Assembly (NCBI GenBank): GCA_016869675.1
Contig: VGDP01000008.1
Span: 5,147-69,146 of the forward strand
Direction: 5' to 3'
From: Alphaproteobacteria bacterium
Lineage (GTDB): Bacteria > Pseudomonadota > Alphaproteobacteria > SP197
Length of the DNA: 64,000 nt
Shown: piece by piece, positions 2,765 through 33,608 of the stretch
Numbering within the stretch: position 1 is the first letter of the stretch
Layout: every line of letters starts with the position of its first letter
Notes under the pieces: model-generated
What the model was told of the DNA's origin: nothing
Databases searched by the model: none
What the model saw: only the letters and a program-made list of their open reading frames with translations
Program-made: the position numbers and the translations under genes

Positions 2765-4498
2765 CTACTCGGCCCAGCGCTTGACGATCTCCTCATAGGC
2801 GATCGTCTCGCCCTGCGGCTTTTCGTTGTCCAGCTTCGCGGCCGGGCCGTTGTCCTTGCCCAGCCACTCCGCAGTATCCTTTTCTTCGTTGAGGCGCGGG
2901 CCGCAACCGCCGTAGGTCTGGGCCTGCTCGTCCGCCGCCTGCATGCGGGCCATCACCTGGTCCATCTCGCCGGCGAGCCGGTCCATGGCTTCCTGCGGGG
3001 TGAAGGCGCCGGAGTTCACGTCGCCGATCTGCTGCCACCAGATCTGCGCGAGTTTCGGATAATCCGGAACGTTGACGCCCGTCGGCGTCCAGTTCACCCG
3101 GTCGGGCGACCGGTAGAACTCGACGAGGCCGCCGAGCTTCGCCGCCCGCTCGGTGAAGGAGTCATGCCGGATCGTGCTGTCGCGGATGATGGTCAGGCCA
3201 ACCTGGGACTTCTTCACATCGACCGTCTTCGACACCACGAACTGGGCATAGAGCCAAGCGGCCTTGCGGCGATCCACGGGCGTCGACTTGAAGAGCGTCC
3301 ACGACCCCGCGTCCTGGTAGCCCAGCTTCATGCCGTCCTTCCAGTAGGAGCCGTGCGGCGAAGGCGCCATGCGCCAGAGCGGATTGCCCTGATCATCGAC
3401 CGTGTTGTTGCCATCGCTCTTGGCCGCGACCATCGAGGCGGTGAAGGCCGTGTACCAGAAGATCTGTTGAGCGACGTTGCCCTGCGACAGCGCCGGCAGC
3501 GATTGATAGAAGTCGAGGTCGGCCGCGCCCGGCGGCGCGTACTTGCGCAGCCACTCGTCCCACTTGGCGATGGCGTAGACGGAGGCCGGCGCGTTGGCGC
3601 CGCCGCCGCGCGAGACCGACGAGCCCGCGGGATTGCAGGAGCCCTCCTCCATGCGGATGCCCCATTCGTCGATCGGCCGCCCGTTTGGCAGGCCCGCCGA
3701 GGTGGAGCCGGCCATGGAGAGCCAGGCATCGGTCATGCGCCAGCCGAGGTCCGGCGCCCGCTTGCCGTAGTCCATGTGGCCATAGATTCTGACGCCGTCG
3801 ATCTCCTTCACGTCCTCGGTGAAGAACTGGGCGATGTCCTCGTAGGCCGACCAGTTGACGGGCACGCCCAATTCATAGCCGTACTTGGCCTTGAACTTCT
3901 CCTTGAGATCGGCACGGTCGAACCAGTCCTTGCGGAACCAGTAGAGATTGGCGAACTGCTGGTCAGGCAGCTGCCAGAGCTTGCCGTCCGGGCCGGTGGT
4001 GAAGGACTTGCCGATGAAATCATCGACATCCAGGGTCGGCAGGGTGACGTCCGCCCCTTCGCCCGCCATCCAGTCCGTCAGATTGACGGCGCTTTGCAGG
4101 CGAGAGTGGGTCCCGATCAGGTCGGAATCGTTGATGTAGGCGTCATAGAGATTGCGGTTCGTCTGCATCTGCGTCTGAACCGCCTGCACCACTTCGCCTT
4201 CGCCAAGCAGCTGGTGATTGACTTTGATGCCGGTAATTTCCTCGAAGGCCTTGGTCAGCACTTCCGACTCGTAGGTATGCGTCGGGATCGTCTCCGACAG
4301 CACGTTGACTTCCATGCCCTTGAACGGCTCGGCCGCTTTCACGAACCACTCCATCTCCGCGAGCTGTTCGTCCATCGACAAAGCCGAGGGCTGGAACTCG
4401 TTCTCGACCCACTTCTTCGCGGCTTCCATGTCCGCGAAGGCCGGGCCTGCGCCGAACGCCAGCAGCAAGGCCGCGGTCACAATGGTCCTTTTCGACAT
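2765..4498 (-). CDS. Extracellular solute-binding protein, family 1 (577 aa, signal peptide), candidate glycerol-binding protein of the ABC system
   Basis: N-terminal signal peptide MSKRTIVTAALLLAFGAGPAFA. Overall SBP_bac_1-like composition. Sits between glpD and the two ATPase genes on the same strand. GGGAG RBS about 10 nt upstream. Confidence 0.8.
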   Translation of the reverse strand: MSKRTIVTAALLLAFGAGPAFADMEAAKKWVENEFQPSALSMDEQLAEMEWFVKAAEPFKGMEVNVLSETIPTHTYESEVLTKAFEEITGIKVNHQLLGEGEVVQAVQTQMQTNRNLYDAYINDSDLIGTHSRLQSAVNLTDWMAGEGADVTLPTLDVDDFIGKSFTTGPDGKLWQLPDQQFANLYWFRKDWFDRADLKEKFKAKYGYELGVPVNWSAYEDIAQFFTEDVKEIDGVRIYGHMDYGKRAPDLGWRMTDAWLSMAGSTSAGLPNGRPIDEWGIRMEEGSCNPAGSSVSRGGGANAPASVYAIAKWDEWLRKYAPPGAADLDFYQSLPALSQGNVAQQIFWYTAFTASMVAAKSDGNNTVDDQGNPLWRMAPSPHGSYWKDGMKLGYQDAGSWTLFKSTPVDRRKAAWLYAQFVVSKTVDVKKSQVGLTIIRDSTIRHDSFTERAAKLGGLVEFYRSPDRVNWTPTGVNVPDYPKLAQIWWQQIGDVNSGAFTPQEAMDRLAGEMDQVMARMQAADEQAQTYGGCGPRLNEEKDTAEWLGKDNGPAAKLDNEKPQGETIAYEEIVKRWAE

Positions 4499-4581
4499 TC
4501 CTGTTACTCCCTATCTCGCGTGCGGCTTGTTGCTTGCGATGCCGGCCGGAGCGCACGCTTGCCCGGTTAGGCCACGATGCA

Positions 4582-4604
4582 CGCCCGGCCGACATGGCCG
4601 GGCG
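4582..4604 (-). terminator. GC-rich hairpin (9-bp perfect stem cgcccggcc / ggccgggcg, 5-nt loop) 30 nt downstream of the glpD stop
   Basis: A perfect inverted repeat is seen directly. There is no U-tract, as is common in high-GC alphaproteobacteria. It may act as a terminator or attenuator between glpD and the transporter genes. Confidence 0.4.
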
Positions 4605-4633
4605 GGAATATCAGTCGTCGCCGGCGGCCGCCT

Positions 4634-6172
4634 TTATCGCGCCGCCGCCTGGCGCGCCGGAGACGCGCCGCTAAACCAATCCTCCAGTGCTGCGACGGTC
4701 GCCGGCGCAACATGTAGGCCGAGCTTGGAGCGACGCCACAGGATGTCCGCGGCCGTGCGCGCCCACTCCTGATCGACCAGGTACTCAACCTCGCGCAAAT
4801 AGAGATCGTCGCCGAAGCAGCGCCCGAGATCGGCCACCGACCGGGCCGGCCCCATCAGGCACGCGGCGCGCGTGCCGTAGGCGCGGGCGTAGCGCCTCGC
4901 CAGCGCCGGCGGCAGCCAGGGCCGTTCCCTCGCGAGGCCCGCGAGGAAGAGGTCGAACTCGGCACCACCGATGTCGCCGCCGGGCAGAGGCACCGCATGA
5001 GTCCACGCCGCGGCCATCGCGGGAAACCAGGGCTGAAGTTTCGCGAGCGCCTGGAGTGCGAGCTTGCGATAGGTGGTGATCTTGCCGCCGAACACCGAGA
5101 GCAGCGGCGCGCCTTCCTGCGCGTCCAACTCCAGCACATAGTCCCGGGTCACTGCGGAGGCGTCTTCGGTTTCGTCGTCGCGCAACGGACGGACCCCGGC
5201 GTAGGTCCAGACCACGTCGGCCGGCGTCACCGGCCGCCGGAAATGCCGGGTAGCGACATCGCAGAGATAGTCGATCTCGGTCTCGGCTATCGCGACCGCC
5301 GCCGGATCGCCTTCGTAGGCCACGTCGGTCGTGCCGATGAGCGTGAATTTCCGCTCATAGGGAATCGTGAAGACGATCCGCCGGTCGACGTTCTGCAGGA
5401 TGTAGGCGTGATCGCCCTCGTACATCCGGGGGACAACGATGTGGCTGCCCTTGACGAGCCGGAGGCGATGGCAATGGCCGAGGCCGAGGGTCCGGTCGAT
5501 GAAATCGGCGACCCACGGCCCGGTCGCGTTCACCAGGGCGCGGGCGCGCAGCCGGCGACGTTCGCCCGATGAGGCGTCGCCGATCTCGGCTTCCCACAAG
5601 CCATCGATGCGGCCGGCGCCGACGCAGCGGCTGCGGGTCAGCACCTCGGCGCCGCGATCGGCGGCGTCGCGGGCATTCAGGACGACCAGGCGCGAATCCT
5701 CGACCCAGCAGTCGGCGTAGGTGAAGCCGCGCGTGAACTCGGGCTTCAGCGGGGCGCCCAGGAGGCCGTTCCGCAGATCGACCCTGCGCGAGGCCGGCAG
5801 GCGCTCGCGGCCGCCGAGATGATCGTAGAAAAACAGGCCGAGGCGGATCATCCAGGCCGGCCGCAGCGACGCCGCGTGCGGCAGCACGAAGGTCAGCGGC
5901 CAGATCACATGGGGGGCGTTGCGCAGCAGGAGTTCGCGCTCGATGAGCGCTTCCCGCACCAGGCGAAACTCGCGGTGCTCGAGATAGCGCAAGCCGCCGT
6001 GGATCAGCTTGGTGCTGCACGAGGAGGTGGCGCTCGAGAGATCGCCCTGCTCGACCAGGCATACGCGCAAGCCCCGGCCGGCCGCATCGCGGGCGATGCC
6101 AGCGCCGTTGATGCCGCCGCCGACAACAAGAAGATCGACGGCATCGCCGCTGCTCTGGCTGCCGACCGGCAC
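4634..6172 (-). CDS. glpD: FAD-dependent sn-glycerol-3-phosphate dehydrogenase
   Basis: N-terminal DLLVVGGGINGAGIARDAAGRGLRVCLVEQGDLSSATSSCSTKLIHGGLRYLE dinucleotide-binding motif. Length 512 aa. GTG start with GGGGGCGAGG RBS. Confidence 0.9.
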   Translation of the reverse strand: MPVGSQSSGDAVDLLVVGGGINGAGIARDAAGRGLRVCLVEQGDLSSATSSCSTKLIHGGLRYLEHREFRLVREALIERELLLRNAPHVIWPLTFVLPHAASLRPAWMIRLGLFFYDHLGGRERLPASRRVDLRNGLLGAPLKPEFTRGFTYADCWVEDSRLVVLNARDAADRGAEVLTRSRCVGAGRIDGLWEAEIGDASSGERRRLRARALVNATGPWVADFIDRTLGLGHCHRLRLVKGSHIVVPRMYEGDHAYILQNVDRRIVFTIPYERKFTLIGTTDVAYEGDPAAVAIAETEIDYLCDVATRHFRRPVTPADVVWTYAGVRPLRDDETEDASAVTRDYVLELDAQEGAPLLSVFGGKITTYRKLALQALAKLQPWFPAMAAAWTHAVPLPGGDIGGAEFDLFLAGLARERPWLPPALARRYARAYGTRAACLMGPARSVADLGRCFGDDLYLREVEYLVDQEWARTAADILWRRSKLGLHVAPATVAALEDWFSGASPARQAAAR

Positions 6173-21058: not shown

Positions 21059-22378
21059 TCACAACGCCGCGAGCGCCGCCGCCGCGGCCGCCTGGCCGGC
21101 TCGCACCGCCCCGTCCATCTGGCTTAGAAAACGCGTCGCCGCCTCGGCGCCCGCCAAGTGGAGACGACCGCACGCGGCGCGCATCCCGACGCCATACGTC
21201 GTCCAGGTGCCCGTCGCCGCGGTCGACACGCAGCCACGGCTGTAGGGCTCATGCGCCCAGTAGCAGTCGGCGATGCCGAGCGGCCGTCGCGCCGGGGCAC
21301 CCAAGGCGGCGGCAAGTCGGTCGAGCATGATGGCGTGACGCTCGGCCACGGGCATGGCACCCAGCCGCACGGACTCGTCTTAGTCGATCAGGGCCGCGAT
21401 GCGTCCGGTCCCCTGGCCGATCGAACTGTCGAAGGCCTTGAACGCGGGTGTCACCAGCAGGTCGAACGGGGCGCGGTCGCACCAGAAGGGGCGCTCGTAC
21501 ACCACCTCGACCTTGATCTTGCTGCGGATCGGGAAGCGCTGCGTCAGGTAGTCGCGCTCGACCGGCAAGGGCGGGTCGTAGGCGATGCGCCCCGCCAGCG
21601 CCGGCGGCAGGGCGACGATGACTTGGCGGGCTTCGACTGTGGACGTGCGCGTCCACAGCCCCGCGCCGGATCCGTCCTGCGCAAAGCCGTGGACCGGGGC
21701 GTTCAGGCGCACCGCGTCGCCCAGTGCATCGGCCGCACGCATGGCCACGCCTTGGGAGCCGCCGACGAACAGCTCGTTGTCGTGCGGCTCCTGGCCGAGC
21801 CCGAGCATGGCCGCGAAGCCGCCGTTGGCGTGCGCGTAGAACAGCGCGTGCAGCAGCGACACCTCGGCCGGTCGGCCCATGAACCCCTCGACCACGGCGC
21901 TGACGAGCCGCTTCGCTCCATCGTGCAGGTCGGCGTCCGAGAGCCAGGACGCGACCGTCTCGCGGTCCCAGGCGCGTGCCTGGGGTGCGGTCCACGGCGC
22001 CTCGGCGGGGACCGTCGCGGCCATGGCGTCGACGGCGGCGATGCCCTCGGCGGCGGGCCCGGTGCGGGGCAGGGCGGGAACCGGCTCGGCGGGGCCCAGG
22101 TCGCGGTCGGCCGACAGGTCCTGGCCCGCGTCGGGCTTGGTGACGACGGCGATGCCCAGCTCGGCCGCCAGGGTCTTGATGGCGTCCTGGCCGGGGCCGG
22201 TCCATTCGGCGCCCAGATCCACGGCCTCGCCGCCGAGGATGGGGCTCCAGGTTCGGCCGCCCACGCGGTCGCGCGCTTCGAGCACGACGACACTGCGGCC
22301 GGCCCGAGCCACCGCGCGCGCCGCCGCCAAGCCCGACAAGCCCGCCCCGACGACGGCCACATCGACACGCTGACTCAT
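21059..22378 (-). pseudogene. Flavin-containing amine oxidase gene interrupted by an in-frame TAA (nonsense) at 21380-21382
   Basis: The N-terminal part, from MSQRVDVAVVGAGLSGLAAARAVARAGRSVVVLEARDRVGGR, is an FAD amine-oxidase. The ORF immediately downstream (21059-21370) is in the same frame. It encodes the amine-oxidase C-terminus (LHLAGAEAATRFLSQMDGAVRAGQAAAAAAL). The two are separated only by TAA. Combined length is about 440 aa, a normal MAO-family size. Confidence 0.6.
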
Positions 22379-22426: not shown

Positions 22427-23547
22427 ATGGCCGATCGTCTTGCATCCGTGATGAGCGAAGCCGAGCGTCGGGCGGTCCGCGCGCCGCTTGCCAACGCGCT
22501 GACCTTGCCCGCCCAGGCGTTCACATCGCCCGACCTCTTCGCGCTAGAGGTCGAGCGCATCTTCCGCCGGCGTTGGACCGCCGTGATGTTCGCCGCCGCG
22601 CTACCCGGTTCCGGCGACGCGCGCCCATTCGAACTCTTCGGCATGCCGCTGTTCGCGGTGCGCGGGGCTGACGGCCGGCTCCGCGTCTTTCACAACATCT
22701 GCCCCTACGACGGCTGCTCGCCGCGCCCTACTGGGATGGCACGCCCGAAGGCCGGCCCGAAGGTCTGGGCGGACGTTCCGTGGATTTGGTCAAAGTGCCG
22801 AGCGCCGAACGGCTCGGCGTCATGTTCGTCGATCTGGACGGCGCGGCGGGTTCCATCGATTCCTGGCTCGCCCCGCTGCGCGCGCTGATCGGCCAGGACT
22901 TCGCAATCGATGCCGTCGTCGCGGCGCGTGATGCTGACGGCACCGCCCTGATCGAGGAACGCACGGTCCGCGCCAACTGGAAGACGTACCAGGAGAACGC
23001 GTCGATCAACGTTCTCCACGAATCGTTCACCCACGAGCTCTACCACAAGTCACCGGAGGTGCCGCGCATCGCGAGCGGCAAGCCCAAGTTCACCAACCAT
23101 CTCGATGGCTCACTCGTCGCCTTCAGCTATGCCGACGAGGACACGGCCAACACCTACGAACGCCTGCCGCTGCCTCACGCCGGACTTGCGCCCGACCGGC
23201 CGCCCCGACGTGGCTACTTCGCCACGCTCTACCCCAACATCAACGTTCCCACCCATAGCGTGTTCGTGAAAGTCAACCTGTGCGTGCCCATGGCGCCGGC
23301 CGAAAGCCGCCTGCATCACCTGTTCTTCTTCCGGCCCGAGGCAGTCACGCGGCCCGACTTCAACGCGATCGAGCGCCATCTGCGCGAATCGTTCCATCAG
23401 GTCTACGGCGAGGACAAGGTGGCCATCGAAGCGGTGCAGAAGGCACGCGCCTCGCCGGTCGCGCGCCAGCACTTCTACGCGCCCTTGTGGGATGCCCAGC
23501 ATCATCGCTTCAACCAACTCGTGCTGGACGACCTGGAGCGACCCTGA
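22427..23547 (+). pseudogene. Rieske-type ring-hydroxylating oxygenase alpha subunit (GbcA/stachydrine-demethylase-like), disrupted: Rieske ligands missing and frameshifted
   Basis: The N-part (frame A) runs up to ...RVFHNICPYDGC. It lacks the CxH...CxxH motif; the His ligands are absent, consistent with a deletion of about 50 aa. The C-terminal catalytic domain (22780-23547) is in a different frame. Together they total about 365 aa, against about 420 aa for intact homologues. Confidence 0.5.
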
Positions 23548-29629: not shown

Positions 29630-29633
29630 CGAT

Positions 29634-30296
29634 TCAGGGGCCTTCGGGCCCCAGCGCGCGCTCGATCAGGCCGACGATGTCGGGCCACGCCTCGGCGCGG
29701 GCGTGGCTGTCGGGTGCAGGGCCGATCAGCCCCGAAAGGCGCGCGTGGCCGACGAAGTGGATGCGCGTCACGGCCGCGGCGTGGGTCGCGACGTCCGCGT
29801 GGTGCGTCGGGCTGTCGTCGATGAAGAAGACCGGTGCCCCGGCACGACACGCCAGGGCCGCCACGGCCGGACCCTTGGCACCGAGGTTGGCGACCAGTGG
29901 AAGGTCTGTTCCCAGCCGCGCGAGCGCGCGGCAGCGGGCGTCCCGGCAGGCGAGCGGCAGGTTGCTCAGCACCACCACTTGGGTCCGTCGCGCCAGCCGT
30001 GCCAGGCCCTCGGCGGCGCCGTCGATGGCGGCCATGGTCTCGGTATGCCGCGCGAAATAGCGCTCGACCGCGCCCCGAACCTGGTCGGCGGCCAGGGGCG
30101 AATCGTCGGGTCGATGCAACAGATTGCCGTTCAGCCGGTATTCACGCCAGGTGAAGTAGACGCCCTCGGCCCCCAGAAACGCCTCGAAACCGCTCATGAA
30201 GTCGAACAACACCTCGTCCGCGTCGCACACCACCAGCGGCCGCGCTGGGTCAACCGGCACGGCATCGATCTGGCTGGCGACGTCGGGGTGCAGCAT
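29634..30296 (-). CDS. HAD-superfamily hydrolase-like protein
   Basis: Motif I VVCDADEVLF (DxDx[T/V]). About 220 aa. Divergent from divK. Confidence 0.55.
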   Translation of the reverse strand: MLHPDVASQIDAVPVDPARPLVVCDADEVLFDFMSGFEAFLGAEGVYFTWREYRLNGNLLHRPDDSPLAADQVRGAVERYFARHTETMAAIDGAAEGLARLARRTQVVVLSNLPLACRDARCRALARLGTDLPLVANLGAKGPAVAALACRAGAPVFFIDDSPTHHADVATHAAAVTRIHFVGHARLSGLIGPAPDSHARAEAWPDIVGLIERALGPEGP

Positions 30297-30335
30297 GGTG
30301 TCTTCGGGGCCCAATGAGCGCGGCGCCGCGCCGTC

Positions 30336-30351
30336 TTAGCGCAACGTTAAC
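30336..30351 (+). promoter_or_regulatory. CtrA-box-like motif TTAG-N7-TTAAC about 57 nt upstream of divK
   Basis: ttagcgcaacgttaac seen in sequence. One mismatch to the Caulobacter CtrA consensus TTAA-N7-TTAAC. divK is a known CtrA-regulon member in Caulobacter. Confidence 0.35.
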
Positions 30352-30407
30352 TGCACCGCCGCTATACCATCCGAACGGCCTTTCGCAACCGGGGAAAAGG
30401 CGCGCCG

Positions 30408-30820
30408 GTGCCCAAAGCGTCGAAGATTGGCTTTGTCAACTCGGTCGTCGCCGACCGCGCGGCGACGATTCTGGTGATCGAGGACAACGAGCTCAACCGC
30501 AAGCTGTTCCGCGATCTGCTGGGCGCTCATGGCTACGATGCCCTGGTCACGGTCAACGGGAGGAAGGCTTTCGCGTCGCGCGCGAGCGCCAGCCCGACCT
30601 GATCGTCATGGACATCCAGCTTCCCGGCGCGTCGGGCCTGGACGTCACGGGCTGGATCAAGGGCGATCCCGCGACCCGCGAGATCCCGGTCATCGCCGTC
30701 ACGGCCCTGGCCATGTGCGGCGATGAGCAGCGCGTCATGGCGGCAGGGTGCGACGCCTACGTTTCCGAGCCGATCAGCTGCGGTGACTTCCTGGACATTG
30801 TCGCGCGATTCCTTCGCTGA
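30408..30820 (+). pseudogene. divK: DivK-like single-domain response regulator split by a 1-nt frameshift in a G-run (~30566-30569); possible sequencing error
   Basis: Frame 1 gives MPKASK...ILVIEDNELNRKLFRDLLGAHGYDALVTVNG, then a spurious tail ending at 30602. The -1 frame continues EEGFRVARERQPDLIVMDIQLPGASGLDVTGWIKGDP...AVTALAMCGDEQRVMAAGCDAYVSEPIS, matching DivK end to end. Adding one G to aacGGGaggaagg restores VNGEEGFRV. Confidence 0.6.
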
Positions 30821-30833
30821 ACGAGGCGGGGGC

Positions 30834-32198
30834 ATGAGCGCGCGCATCCTCGTGGTCGACGACCAACCGCTCAACATCCGCCTCATGGAGGCGAAACTCG
30901 GCGGCGAGTACTACGACGTCCGCAGCGCCGGCGGTGGCGAGGCGGCGTTGCGCACCATGGCCGAGGACCAGCCCGATCTGACCGTGCTCGACATCATGAT
31001 GCCCGGCATAGACGGCTTCGAGGTGTGTCGACGCATCAAGGCGGATCCGACGATCCAGCACATTCCCGTGGTCATGGCGACGGCCCTTGACGCACCGGAA
31101 CAGCGGGTGCGTGGGCTCGACGCCGGGGCCGACGACTTCCTTACGCGCCCTGTGGACGACCTGGCGTTGTTCGCCCGCATCCGTTCGCTGCTGCGCTGGA
31201 AGCAAACCCACGACGAACTGCGCACGCGGCTTGTCACCTCGCGCGAGTTCGATCTGCTCGACGTCGTCGTCGTCGGCGAGGCCTCGGCGCGGCCGCGCAC
31301 CGCGATCGTCAGCGACTTCTCCATCGAAGCCGATGACATCGCGCGCATCCTGGGCCCCCAGTACGACGTCACCATCGTCGAGGATGTGCCGCAGGCGACG
31401 AGCGTGGTCACCGAGTCCATGTGCGACCTGGCGATCGTCAGCCTGGTGTCCACGACGTTCGATGGTCTGCGCCTGTACTCGTCGATCCGGTCCAACCCGG
31501 CGTCGCGTCAGGTGCCCATCATCGCGATCATCGAGGAGGGCGATCGCGCGCGGCTGGCCAAGGCGCTCAATCTCGGCGTCAGCGACTACGTCGTCGCGCC
31601 GATCGAGGCCAATGAGTTGACGGTGCGTGTGCGCAACCAGGCCCGCCGCTATCGCGCCCACAGTCGGCTGTGCGCCGACTACGAGCGCAGCCTGAGCGCG
31701 GCGGCGAGCGACGTCCTGACCGAGCTCTACGGCCGGCGCTGTCTGTTGTCCCATCTGGCACGCCACCTGGCGGTCAGCGCCGCCGAGGATAAGCCGCTGG
31801 CGGTGGTCATGGTCGACGTCGACCATTTCAAGGCGATCAACGACCGGCACGGCCACCTGTGCGGCGACCGCGTGCTGCAAGAGATCGCCCGGCGCATCGA
31901 GCACGAGGTACGCGTCACGGACCTTGCCGCGCGCTACGGCGGCGAGGAGTTCACTGTCGTCATGCCGGCGACCGACGAGCCGACCGCCAGCGCCGTCGCC
32001 GAGAGGGTGTGCAACGCCATCCACGCGCGCGCCATCGTGGTCAAGGACCCACGGGTGACCTTGCCGGTGACGGTCAGCATCAGCGTCGCCATCCGGGCCA
32101 AGGGCGACGACGTGGAGGCGATTCTGGATCGCGCCGACAAGGCGCTCTACCGCGCCAAGAGCGTGGGCCGCAACCGGGTCGTGGCCGCGACCGCCTGA
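30834..32198 (+). CDS. pleD: Response regulator / diguanylate cyclase PleD (REC-REC-GGDEF)
   Basis: Two receiver domains (ILVVDDQPLNIRL..., DLAIVSL...). The GGDEF domain has RYGGEEF and an upstream RxxD I-site-like region. Conserved divK-pleD arrangement. Confidence 0.85.
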   Translation: MSARILVVDDQPLNIRLMEAKLGGEYYDVRSAGGGEAALRTMAEDQPDLTVLDIMMPGIDGFEVCRRIKADPTIQHIPVVMATALDAPEQRVRGLDAGADDFLTRPVDDLALFARIRSLLRWKQTHDELRTRLVTSREFDLLDVVVVGEASARPRTAIVSDFSIEADDIARILGPQYDVTIVEDVPQATSVVTESMCDLAIVSLVSTTFDGLRLYSSIRSNPASRQVPIIAIIEEGDRARLAKALNLGVSDYVVAPIEANELTVRVRNQARRYRAHSRLCADYERSLSAAASDVLTELYGRRCLLSHLARHLAVSAAEDKPLAVVMVDVDHFKAINDRHGHLCGDRVLQEIARRIEHEVRVTDLAARYGGEEFTVVMPATDEPTASAVAERVCNAIHARAIVVKDPRVTLPVTVSISVAIRAKGDDVEAILDRADKALYRAKSVGRNRVVAATA

Positions 32199-32223
32199 CG
32201 CGCGAGCGGCGCCCGGCCCGCGC

Positions 32224-32390
32224 TACTTCAGCTTGGTTTCCTTGAACGCGACGTGCTTGCGCGCGACCGGGTCGTACTTCCGGAAGCTCAGCTTCTCGGT
32301 CAGCTTCTTCGGGTTCTTCTTCGCGACATAGAAGAAGCCGGTGTCCGCCGTGCTTTCCAGCTTGATCAGAATGGTGTTGGGCTTGGCCAT
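32224..32390 (-). CDS. rpmG: 50S ribosomal protein L33 (55 aa, Cys-less form)
   Basis: My own translation: [55 protein letters not shown]. Below the ORF-track size cut-off. Confidence 0.85.
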
Positions 32391-32444
32391 GGCCGGGTCC
32401 TGGATCCTGGGTTCGGCGCGACCATAGCGGCCGTGCCGCGCGAG

Positions 32445-33608
32445 TCAAGACTTGGCCGCCTCGGCCGGGCGAAAGATCAGGAGTACCAAGTACATGGTAC
32501 ACGCCGTAGCGACCACGGCGACCATGCCGTGGGGGTCCCAGGCGTCCATGGCCGCGCCGCCGATCGTGGGGCCGACCGTGCTGCCGATGCCGAACATGAC
32601 GACGAACACCGTGTTCGCGGTCAGAAGGTCGGGGCCGTCGTAACGCCGGCCCAGCAGCACCATGCCGACCGTGAAGAAGCCGCCCATGACACCACCCCAC
32701 ACGCACAGGACGGCGATCAGCGCCAGGCGAATGTCGATCACGAAAGGAAGCACGACGGCCGCGAGAGCCGCGACGATCGTACATCCGACCAAGACACGCG
32801 CTGGGCGCACCCGATCGCACAGCCAGCCGATGAGTAACTGACACCCAATGGCACCAATCACGGTGAGCGAGATCAGGCGCGCGATGGTGCCTTCGTCGAG
32901 GCCCGAGCGAAGCCCGTAGACCGGGAAAAGCGCCAGCACGATGACGTCGACGAAGCCGTACATCGCGCCGGCCAGCATGATCGCCGGCGTGGCGCGCAGG
33001 AACGTCAGGATGCTGCCGGAGGGGCGGCCCTCGAGCGCCGGTCCGACCCGCCGCACGAGCCACAGCGGAACGGCGGCGAGCGCCGCGCACGCGACACCGC
33101 CCAGAAACGGCGCCCAACCCTGGGAGCCGACCGCGTCGATGATCAGCGGACCACCCGCGAAGCCCAGGAAACCGAACGCGGTGTAAACGCCCAGGATGCG
33201 GCCCCGTTGTCGTTCGGGCGCGAGCTGGATGACCCAGGCATCCGACAGGATGAACAGGATTTCGACGCCCGCACCCAGCAGGAATCGCAGCACGAGCCAC
33301 GAGGCGTAGCTCTCCCACGCTGCCATGGCGAGCAGCACGGCGATCGAGTTGGCCACGGCCAGCAACATCAGCCGGGTGGCGCCGACGGCTCGCGCGAGCC
33401 ACGGCACCACGGGCGCGATGATGATCATCGCCGCGGTCTGCGCCGCGGTGCTGAGGCCGATCGCCGTGCCGGCGTGGCCCATGGCCTCGAGCCGGAACGA
33501 CAGCAGCGGCCAAACCAGACCCGACATCATGGTGACGATGGCCCCGGCGCCCATCACGGCGGCGAGGCTCAGCAGGCGACCGGGCGCTCCGTCATTCGTA
33601 GATGACAT
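32445..33608 (-). CDS. MFS transporter
   Basis: About 12 TM helices, MFS-type repeats. Start is uncertain because the track ORF overlaps the NUDIX gene by 35 nt. Confidence 0.75.
   Translation of the reverse strand: MSSTNDGAPGRLLSLAAVMGAGAIVTMMSGLVWPLLSFRLEAMGHAGTAIGLSTAAQTAAMIIIAPVVPWLARAVGATRLMLLAVANSIAVLLAMAAWESYASWLVLRFLLGAGVEILFILSDAWVIQLAPERQRGRILGVYTAFGFLGFAGGPLIIDAVGSQGWAPFLGGVACAALAAVPLWLVRRVGPALEGRPSGSILTFLRATPAIMLAGAMYGFVDVIVLALFPVYGLRSGLDEGTIARLISLTVIGAIGCQLLIGWLCDRVRPARVLVGCTIVAALAAVVLPFVIDIRLALIAVLCVWGGVMGGFFTVGMVLLGRRYDGPDLLTANTVFVVMFGIGSTVGPTIGGAAMDAWDPHGMVAVVATACTMYLVLLIFRPAEAAKS

Follow-up and report, generated by a model that had tools for sequence, protein, structure and literature searches.

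Why is a gene that is essential in Caulobacter split over two reading frames? The gene is divK, and we found it within positions 30336-30820 of a 64,000-nucleotide stretch of an alphaproteobacterial contig (VGDP01000008.1; we call this whole 64-kb stretch the window). There, a 1-nt deletion splits an ortholog of divK over two frames, and an intact pleD follows downstream. An earlier interpretation, made from the letters of the DNA alone (the sequence-only reading), had noticed the split and attributed it to a sequencing error in a homopolymer or to programmed slippage. We argue that this divK is very probably a genuine, fixed, and evolutionarily young unitary pseudogene, in a divK-pleD operon that has retained its CtrA-type promoter. 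(Coordinates are collected in Table 1.)

We begin with the two frames. Frame 0, read from the GTG at 30408, encodes MPKASK...LVIEDNELNRKLFRDLLGAHGYDALVTVNG (the whole in-frame stretch is MPKASKIGFVNSVVADRAATILVIEDNELNRKLFRDLLGAHGYDALVTVNG). These are the native codons 1-51; they are followed by 13 unrelated, out-of-frame codons and then by a premature TGA (30600-30602). The -1 frame from 30560 carries EEGFRVARERQPDLIVMDIQLPG...ARFLR (in a longer reading, EEGFRVARERQPDLIVMDIQLPGASGLDV...DIVARFLR) and ends at a TGA at 30818-30820. If one base is added after 30559, the result is a 137-amino-acid protein with a single, end-to-end match to Response_reg in Pfam (PF00072; E = 1.7e-21, residues 21-131). 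As this is its one Pfam match, the repaired protein is a stand-alone receiver with no output domain. By itself, the 5' piece has only a weak partial match to Response_reg (E = 0.006, profile positions 1-36), and the 3' piece, which gene callers report as a 70-amino-acid open reading frame (ORF) from the ATG at 30608, matches at E = 1.4e-13 (profile positions 33-109). The top match in PDB for the repaired protein is DivK from C. crescentus (1m5t; E = 8.8e-39), followed by the first receiver domain (Rec1) of PleD (E of about 5e-20). The repaired protein is also 92-96% identical to intact 137-amino-acid proteins at the syntenic position that JGI labels as DivK. Because no DivK-specific model passes in an NCBIfam search of the repaired protein, its membership in DivK rests on the PDB similarity and on synteny. 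The sequence-only reading had stated that the two frames jointly encode an end-to-end DivK-like receiver of about 137 residues, and this is what we find.

In many respects, the repaired protein resembles DivK from C. crescentus. Both are single-domain receivers, and they align over 117 residues with 54% identity (MAFFT). Both have the acidic E/D pair, the aspartate, and the threonine, and both genes have pleD directly downstream and a CtrA-type box upstream (PMC2877005). But the ORF in the window is broken at codon 51, the equivalent of Lys105 is a glutamate, the first half-site of the box reads TTAG, and the protein has an N-terminal extension of about 20 residues that is poorly conserved. 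Also, DivK is essential in Caulobacter, whereas the lineage in the window persists without it. In terms of the receiver's active site, E25, D26, D69, and T99 are present, but with Lys121 replaced by glutamate, the quintet is incomplete. A DivK should also have an uninterrupted frame, and here the frame is interrupted by the deletion in codon 51 and the premature TGA. A DivK ortholog that lacks both an intact frame and the active-site lysine is best classified as a unitary divK pseudogene.

As for the N-terminal extension (30408-30467), over its 20 codons it differs from the intact ortholog L001 by 5 amino acids. All members of the clade nevertheless have a start codon available at the aligned position, and some annotations (of 123-125 amino acids) begin further downstream.

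Exactly which base was lost? We aligned the DNA to intact orthologs, and the deletion lies in the codon for Gly51. In the two closest intact orthologs, L001 (8.9% nucleotide divergence from the divK in the window) and L111 (6.9%, with the same intergenic region and with pleD downstream), codon 51 and its neighbors read AAC GGC GAG. Furthermore, among the glycine codons of five sampled genes, GGC is far more common than GGG (218 vs. 25). The lost base is therefore probably the C of GGC, which is the most parsimonious choice; its loss would fuse GG and GAG into GGGAG. Since the closest intact orthologs read GGC, the run of G would be a product of the deletion and not its cause. (Alternatively, a synonymous change from GGC to GGG may have come first, followed by the loss of one G.) The sequence-only reading was correct that one base is missing, but it placed a missing G near 30566; the lesion is at 30558-30560, and the base was probably not a G. 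It had also proposed a comparison to divK from relatives. At the syntenic position and with the same flanking genes, relatives such as L001 and L111 have intact, single-frame orthologs, against which the copy in the window carries a disabling lesion. That is the pattern of a unitary pseudogene.

A single missing base might be an error in the assembly, in which case the organism would really have an intact divK. Single-base indels are a common artifact, and the lesion now lies within a GGG run, where a base could have been dropped. To examine how reproducible the deletion is, we compared the stretch from the intergenic region through pleD (30315-32198 in the window; 1,884 bp) across the window and 21 related loci. 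These loci were retrieved by the exact PleD sequence, by the exact 70-amino-acid ORF, and by two further variants of that ORF. They come from JGI (IMG 3300020197/3300020198), ENA (ERZ27247963), and Logan assemblies (SRR161086xx, SRR7052xxx/7053xxx, SRR79905xx, ERR147899xx, and ERR14822406). The two IMG datasets are metagenomes from the water column of Lake Tanganyika (bioRxiv 10.1101/834861).

The window and its 21 related loci all share one identical string across the lesion, CGGTCAACGGGAGGAAGG, and the loci represent at least 18 separately assembled metagenome runs from the three data sources. The 19 full-length sequences (the window and 18 loci) comprise 11 haplotypes, and both split ORFs (of 64 and 70 amino acids) are intact in all 21 loci. 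An identical deletion in so many runs must be a genuine lesion and not an artifact. Moreover, the intact orthologs have GGC, so there was probably no homopolymer to misread, and the substitution of Lys121 that accompanies the deletion could not be produced by an indel error. About 30 other genes in the window have full-length, single-frame domain matches, which indicates that the assembly is not generally error-ridden and rules out pervasive frameshifting. Given the 11 haplotypes and the three pipelines, we consider a sequencing or assembly error next to impossible; on this point the sequence-only reading does not hold up. It was right that the gene is frameshifted by one base.

The proteins tell the same story. 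In a collection of 15 billion proteins, the 64-amino-acid fragment is found on 39 contigs (26 + 13), and the 70-amino-acid fragment is found on 26 contigs, as three variants (P0125-P0127, on 17, 5, and 4 contigs). Every one of these variants carries E121. No full-length protein in that collection has the C104 and E121 that are diagnostic of this lineage, and the nearest intact proteins (P0122, with 6 differences, as well as P0001 and P0121) all have R104 and K121. (We also scanned a collection of metagenome contigs twice for lineage-specific 29- to 40-mers around the deletion and found no match, but that collection evidently lacks the JGI contigs that carry the locus.)

We then considered the amino acid substitutions, which the sequence-only reading did not mention. 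CheY-like receivers need their lysine for phosphorylation-dependent switching, and the receiver lysine at position 121 corresponds to Lys109 of CheY. It aligns to Lys105 of C. crescentus DivK (1m5t). In the window it is a glutamate, and a second basic position has become a cysteine (R104C). A45, C104, and E121 are three derived residues of the copy in the window, and none of them is found in any of the 120 best homologs.

To polarize the changes in divK by branch, we used another intact ortholog, L104, as the outgroup. The branch leading to the window has 7 nonsynonymous and 7 synonymous changes, while the sister branch leading to L001 has 1 and 8 (Fisher exact test, p = 0.086). Five of the nonsynonymous changes on the window's branch are inside the domain (V45A, A48T, R104C, K121E, and T131I). 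This apparent excess of nonsynonymous change is suggestive of decay. Within the split clade, we found two nonsynonymous polymorphisms (T131I and V132F) and two synonymous ones; these counts are small, but because T131I and V132F are segregating, amino acid changes have continued to accumulate after the frameshift. The deletion, C104, and E121 are common to all members of the split clade, and either the deletion or the substitutions may have come first.

Could the frameshift be bypassed? Programmed -1 ribosomal frameshifting, or transcriptional slippage, at GGG-AGG would restore a full-length DivK with E121. The shift that would be required is indeed -1 and falls exactly at the glycine codon, and the reading frames are otherwise undamaged. 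Also, the site is followed by AGG, a very rare codon (2 of 283 arginine codons in the five sampled genes) that could pause ribosomes; this codon is the sole feature that could favor slippage. Against this, a slippery heptamer (X XXY YYZ) is absent from the whole ORF, and no homopolymer reaches 5 nucleotides. The 100 nt downstream (30561-30660) fold at -43 kcal/mol, which is no better than dinucleotide shuffles (z = -0.71). At the known programmed -1 sites, such as those in dnaX and in insertion sequence (IS) elements, two overlapping frames jointly encode one protein, as they do here, but the divK locus lacks the slippery heptamer, the stimulatory structure, and the conservation in relatives. 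The two-frame layout is confined to a species-level clade and all of the diverged relatives are single-frame, so this is not a conserved recoding site. And even a recoded protein would be without the invariant lysine. We therefore view this second proposal of the sequence-only reading as highly improbable.

Upstream of divK is a candidate CtrA box, TTAG-N7-TTAAC, which matches the CtrA consensus (TTAA-N7-TTAAC) at 8 of 9 positions. No other TTAR-N7-TTAAC occurs in the 64 kb of the window; 0.02 would be expected by chance, and 2 of 100 shuffles gave one. We fetched seven orthologous loci whose DivK proteins are 62-96% identical (L001, L111, L104, L099, L100, L101, and L103), and every one of them has TTAG-N7-TTAAC on the same strand, 60-118 nt upstream of the annotated start. 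In the alignment of seven promoters (51% mean column identity), TTAG and TTAAC are essentially the sole invariant positions, besides a few scattered bases, while the 7-nt spacers vary (CGCAACG, CGCATCG, CTCCACG, GCTCCGA, CGCCGGA, and CACGCGG). By this pattern of conservation, the element is a real phylogenetic footprint. It seems to be a conserved dimer-type operator with the architecture of a CtrA box, and thus a putative CtrA site. The sequence-only reading had noted the resemblance to a CtrA box, and its position for the element was exact.

Downstream of the box, there is a putative -10-like element, CTATAC (Table 1). In 6 of the 7 promoters of the alignment, TTAAC is followed at 9-10 nt by a CTA core (in L100, the seventh, it is CTC), which is consistent with a -10 element and with the box lying over the -35 region. 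A simple scan of 30150-32450 for the sigma-70 consensus called no promoter upstream of divK, but such a scan is uninformative for alphaproteobacterial promoters.

Instead of CtrA, a different regulator might use the element as its operator, or the element might serve the divergent gene upstream, which encodes a 220-amino-acid protein and starts just 40 nt from the box in the window. The second possibility does not fit the relatives. In L101 and L103, the 220-amino-acid gene is absent and a different, co-directional gene is found upstream, yet the box is still directly upstream of divK, so the box belongs to divK. As for another regulator, the first half-site is invariantly TTAG, which is a conserved departure from the CtrA consensus, and neither ctrA nor another gene of the pathway is visible in the window. 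However, when we scanned genome contigs with the repaired DivK, we obtained 80 more distant divK-like loci (at most 57% identity, from Caulobacterales and assorted phyla; 614 kb in all), and 27 of these have a perfect TTAA-N7-TTAAC on the + strand, 124-145 nt before the start of the match. All 27 are from metagenome-assembled genomes of Caulobacterales type, and the perfect motif occurs just 5 times elsewhere in the 614 kb. As in those loci, the element in the window has two half-sites of 4-5 nt with 7 variable bases between them, upstream of divK and in the same orientation; the difference is the invariant A-to-G change in the first half-site. Furthermore, CtrA is known to control divK in C. 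crescentus, and such control has been predicted in related genomes (PMC2877005). Overall, a role for another regulator or for the divergent gene seems unlikely, and we favor a CtrA-type site that belongs to divK.

The gene downstream is clearly pleD, as the sequence-only reading proposed when it described a divK-pleD pair. The protein passes the NCBIfam equivalog model for PleD (NF007135; 512.7 bits vs. a cut-off of 474), has two Response_reg domains and a GGDEF domain in Pfam, and matches structures of C. crescentus PleD over its full length (E of about 1e-109). The GGEEF motif and the RxxD of the I-site are kept, as compared to 9g85. In contigs from the split clade, pleD encodes 454 amino acids wherever it is complete. 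The synteny of divK and pleD is also conserved in relatives with flanking sequence (L001, L099-L101, L104, and L111; L103 has the same arrangement, with a disrupted pleD). We scanned 30150-32450 for terminators and found none between divK and pleD.

One difference within PleD is at codon 105 (31146-31148), where the lysine of Rec1 (FLTKPID in C. crescentus) is an arginine (FLTRPVD) in the window and in L001, L104, L099, L100, and L101. Because this change is found across the clade, it is not a sign of decay.

In the relative L103, it is pleD that is broken. At this locus (3904-4922), pleD is interrupted both by a frameshift close to residue 70 and by an in-frame stop (RVRN*LRR), and it is called as three pieces of 81, 188, and 187 amino acids. 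Its divK is intact and encodes P0012, which is 62% identical to the repaired protein from the window. The same type of disruption is found on an ENA contig (ERZ1305449), although the two assemblies are not necessarily independent. Judged by its reading frames, L103 is a case of reciprocal decay of the pair: pleD and not divK is disrupted. It is conceivable, though improbable, that the lineage in the window and L103 together represent a clade that is dismantling the DivK-PleD module piece by piece.

Several points weigh against our interpretation. First, the nonsynonymous excess in divK is not statistically significant by itself, and the ratio of nonsynonymous to synonymous changes in pleD is also somewhat raised in the window's lineage (22/47 vs. 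9/29). Second, the half-site TTAG, instead of TTAA, is shared by all seven members of the clade, and binding by CtrA is our inference from the motif. Third, our search for a compensating DivK-like paralog, or for ctrA, cckA, divL, pleC, or divJ, covered the 64-kb window only. (No other DivK-like receiver or histidine kinase is found within it.) Fourth, beyond the single deletion and K121E, divK is little degraded, and some residual use would be compatible with its sequence. But a young pseudogene, at about 7% divergence from the nearest intact ortholog, would not be expected to have gathered more lesions.

What might such residual use be? The fragments could have kept or gained a function. For example, the 70-amino-acid ORF might be translated by termination-reinitiation: the premature TGA and the ATG at 30608 are just 5 nt apart. 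In that case, the pieces might work together by complementation, serve as a decoy for DivJ, PleC, or DivL, or simply keep ribosomes on the mRNA and protect pleD from Rho-dependent polarity, and pleD does depend on transcription through the divK remnant. As mentioned above, neither ORF is disrupted in any of the 21 loci. On the other hand, no Shine-Dalgarno-like sequence precedes this ATG, the C-terminal fragment lacks beta1 through alpha2 and bears both K121E and R104C, and the new nonsynonymous variants T131I and V132F are segregating within it. A function for the fragments is thus quite improbable. More specifically, the split gene might not be dead if an inefficient -1 shift at GGG-AGG, or reinitiation at TGA-N5-ATG, yielded a full-length or two-piece DivK(K121E), which might be a modulator of DivL or PleC that is insensitive to phosphorylation. 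We consider this very doubtful. If it were true, then the DivK switch would have been naturally rewired in this lineage and not lost.

If divK is a pseudogene, as we think, then events probably unfolded as follows. An ancestor of the lineage lost one base of the codon for Gly51, so that translation from the GTG now ends after 64 residues. As this stop precedes the phospho-acceptor Asp69, no functional DivK would be made from this locus. The receiver lysine also changed to glutamate. Transcription from the CtrA-type promoter, with the box overlapping the -35 region, would still pass through the divK remnant and into pleD. The promoter has probably been retained because pleD needs it: the same promoter would still drive the full-length pleD, so selection for the expression of pleD would maintain the box. 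In Caulobacter, DivK~P inhibits DivL-CckA, and DivK stimulates PleC and DivJ (PMC7003649, PMC2877005). The loss of DivK would abolish both the inhibition of DivL-CckA by DivK~P and the DivK-dependent stimulation of PleC and DivJ, and the lineage would run its CtrA and cyclic di-GMP circuitry without feedback from DivK on DivL-CckA.

Table 1. Features of the divK-pleD locus, with positions in the window.
Feature	Positions	Strand	Description or basis
Divergent conserved gene, 220 aa	29634..30296	-	Shares the 111-nt intergenic region; called in every contig of the split clade, as well as in L001, L099, and L100
CtrA-box-like element TTAG-N7-TTAAC (TTAGCGCAACGTTAAC)	30336..30351	+	57 nt before the start codon of divK
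Putative -10-like element CTATAC	30362..30367	+	10 nt after the TTAAC half-site; inferred
5' fragment of the probable divK pseudogene	30408..30602	+	GTG start; codons 1-51 (beta1-alpha1-beta2, acidic pair E25/D26); 13 out-of-frame codons; TGA
1-nt deletion in the Gly51 codon (AAC GG- GAG; GGC GAG in intact orthologs)	30558..30560	+	DNA alignments with intact L001-L003 and L111
3' part of the probable divK pseudogene	30560..30820	+	-1 frame; codons 52-137 and TGA; phospho-acceptor D69 (30611-30613), T99
R104C (TGC)	30716..30718	+	Basic (K/R) in 116/120 homologs, Cys in none; derived on the window branch
K121E (GAG) at the invariant receiver lysine	30767..30769	+	Lys in 120/120 best homologs; AAG in intact orthologs; shared by all of P0125-P0127
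Intact pleD, 454 aa, Rec-Rec-GGDEF	30834..32198	+	Starts 13 nt after the divK stop

The divergent 220-amino-acid protein has no match in Pfam or NCBIfam. By eye, its N-terminus (VVCDADEVLFDF) resembles the DxD motif of HAD-type proteins. In L001, L002, and L003, which have an intact divK, a gene for a 158-amino-acid GNAT acetyltransferase lies between an EipB-like gene and the 220-amino-acid gene (4569-5045 in L001). The lineage in the window does not have it (29630-29634), so there is an indel adjoining the locus.

The window has a GC content of 70.5%, and the surroundings of the locus consist of ordinary chromosomal genes: an ABC transporter, GlpD-like, TyrA, HisC-like, thiolase/SDR/PhaR, PlsY, DprA, TopA, RNase R, PyrB, RuvX, and amidases. 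Scans of the window with Rfam and for tRNAs found nothing. TopA has a match of 100% identity on a 334.5-kb JGI contig, which also carries the divK locus, but its identity to the nearest named taxa is just about 65% (Stellaceae, Aliidongia, Vineibacter, Dongiaceae, and Caenispirillum). The lineage, a Rhodospirillales-like alphaproteobacterium with about 70% GC, is uncultured and deep-branching and is found in metagenomes from Lake Tanganyika and elsewhere.

We also noticed two other unusual genes in the window. A flavin amine-oxidase gene (PF01593; 21059-22378, - strand) has an in-frame stop at 21380-21382 (...GRIAALID*DESVRLG...) and is called as two pieces of 332 and 98 amino acids. The same split is found in the independent contigs L089-L092 and L097. 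This is a second disrupted gene of the lineage. The other is a 255-amino-acid gene (22780-23547, + strand) whose only match is to PF00848, the catalytic domain of the alpha subunits of ring-hydroxylating oxygenases; a Rieske domain was not called. There is a gap of about 400 nt upstream of it, and it may be truncated.

How surprising is the loss of DivK? Of the alternatives in the sequence-only reading, the genuine frameshift is the correct one, although the biological significance of the frameshift is reduced because several other alphaproteobacteria lack DivK or can do without it. Hyphomonas neptunium does not require DivK (PMC7200025), and A. tumefaciens survives a deletion of divK (PMC7003649). 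DivJ-PleC-DivK has also been lost as a module more than once, and it is missing from Rhodobacterales, many Rhodospirillales, Rickettsiales, and Sphingomonadales (PMC2877005). As in those organisms, the upstream DivK module seems to be removable from this lineage while the organism remains viable. The difference is that those cases are laboratory deletions or ancient and complete losses, while the loss in the window would be recent and has left a recognizable pseudogene, with intact orthologs just 6-9% away at the DNA level and with pleD and the promoter retained. Among the titles and abstracts listed by a literature search, we found no earlier report of a natural divK pseudogene. Nevertheless, losses of this kind are known, and this further instance is of modest novelty. 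Overall, what the sequence-only reading observed at this locus is confirmed, and its interpretation is partly supported.

In Caulobacter and Sinorhizobium, DivK is the essential link from the polarity kinases to the master regulator CtrA, but elsewhere it is dispensable or absent. If we are correct, then this locus is a recent and well-polarized natural loss of DivK, and the very close relatives with intact divK allow a comparison for the genetic background that makes DivK expendable. The sister lineage L103 has lost pleD instead, and if the clade were indeed dismantling the module piece by piece, then the two would form a natural series for understanding what makes DivK essential. Finally, the conserved box, as a putative CtrA site, extends the evidence for an ancient connection between the CtrA box and divK to a deep-branching and uncultured group outside of the Caulobacterales and the Rhizobiales.

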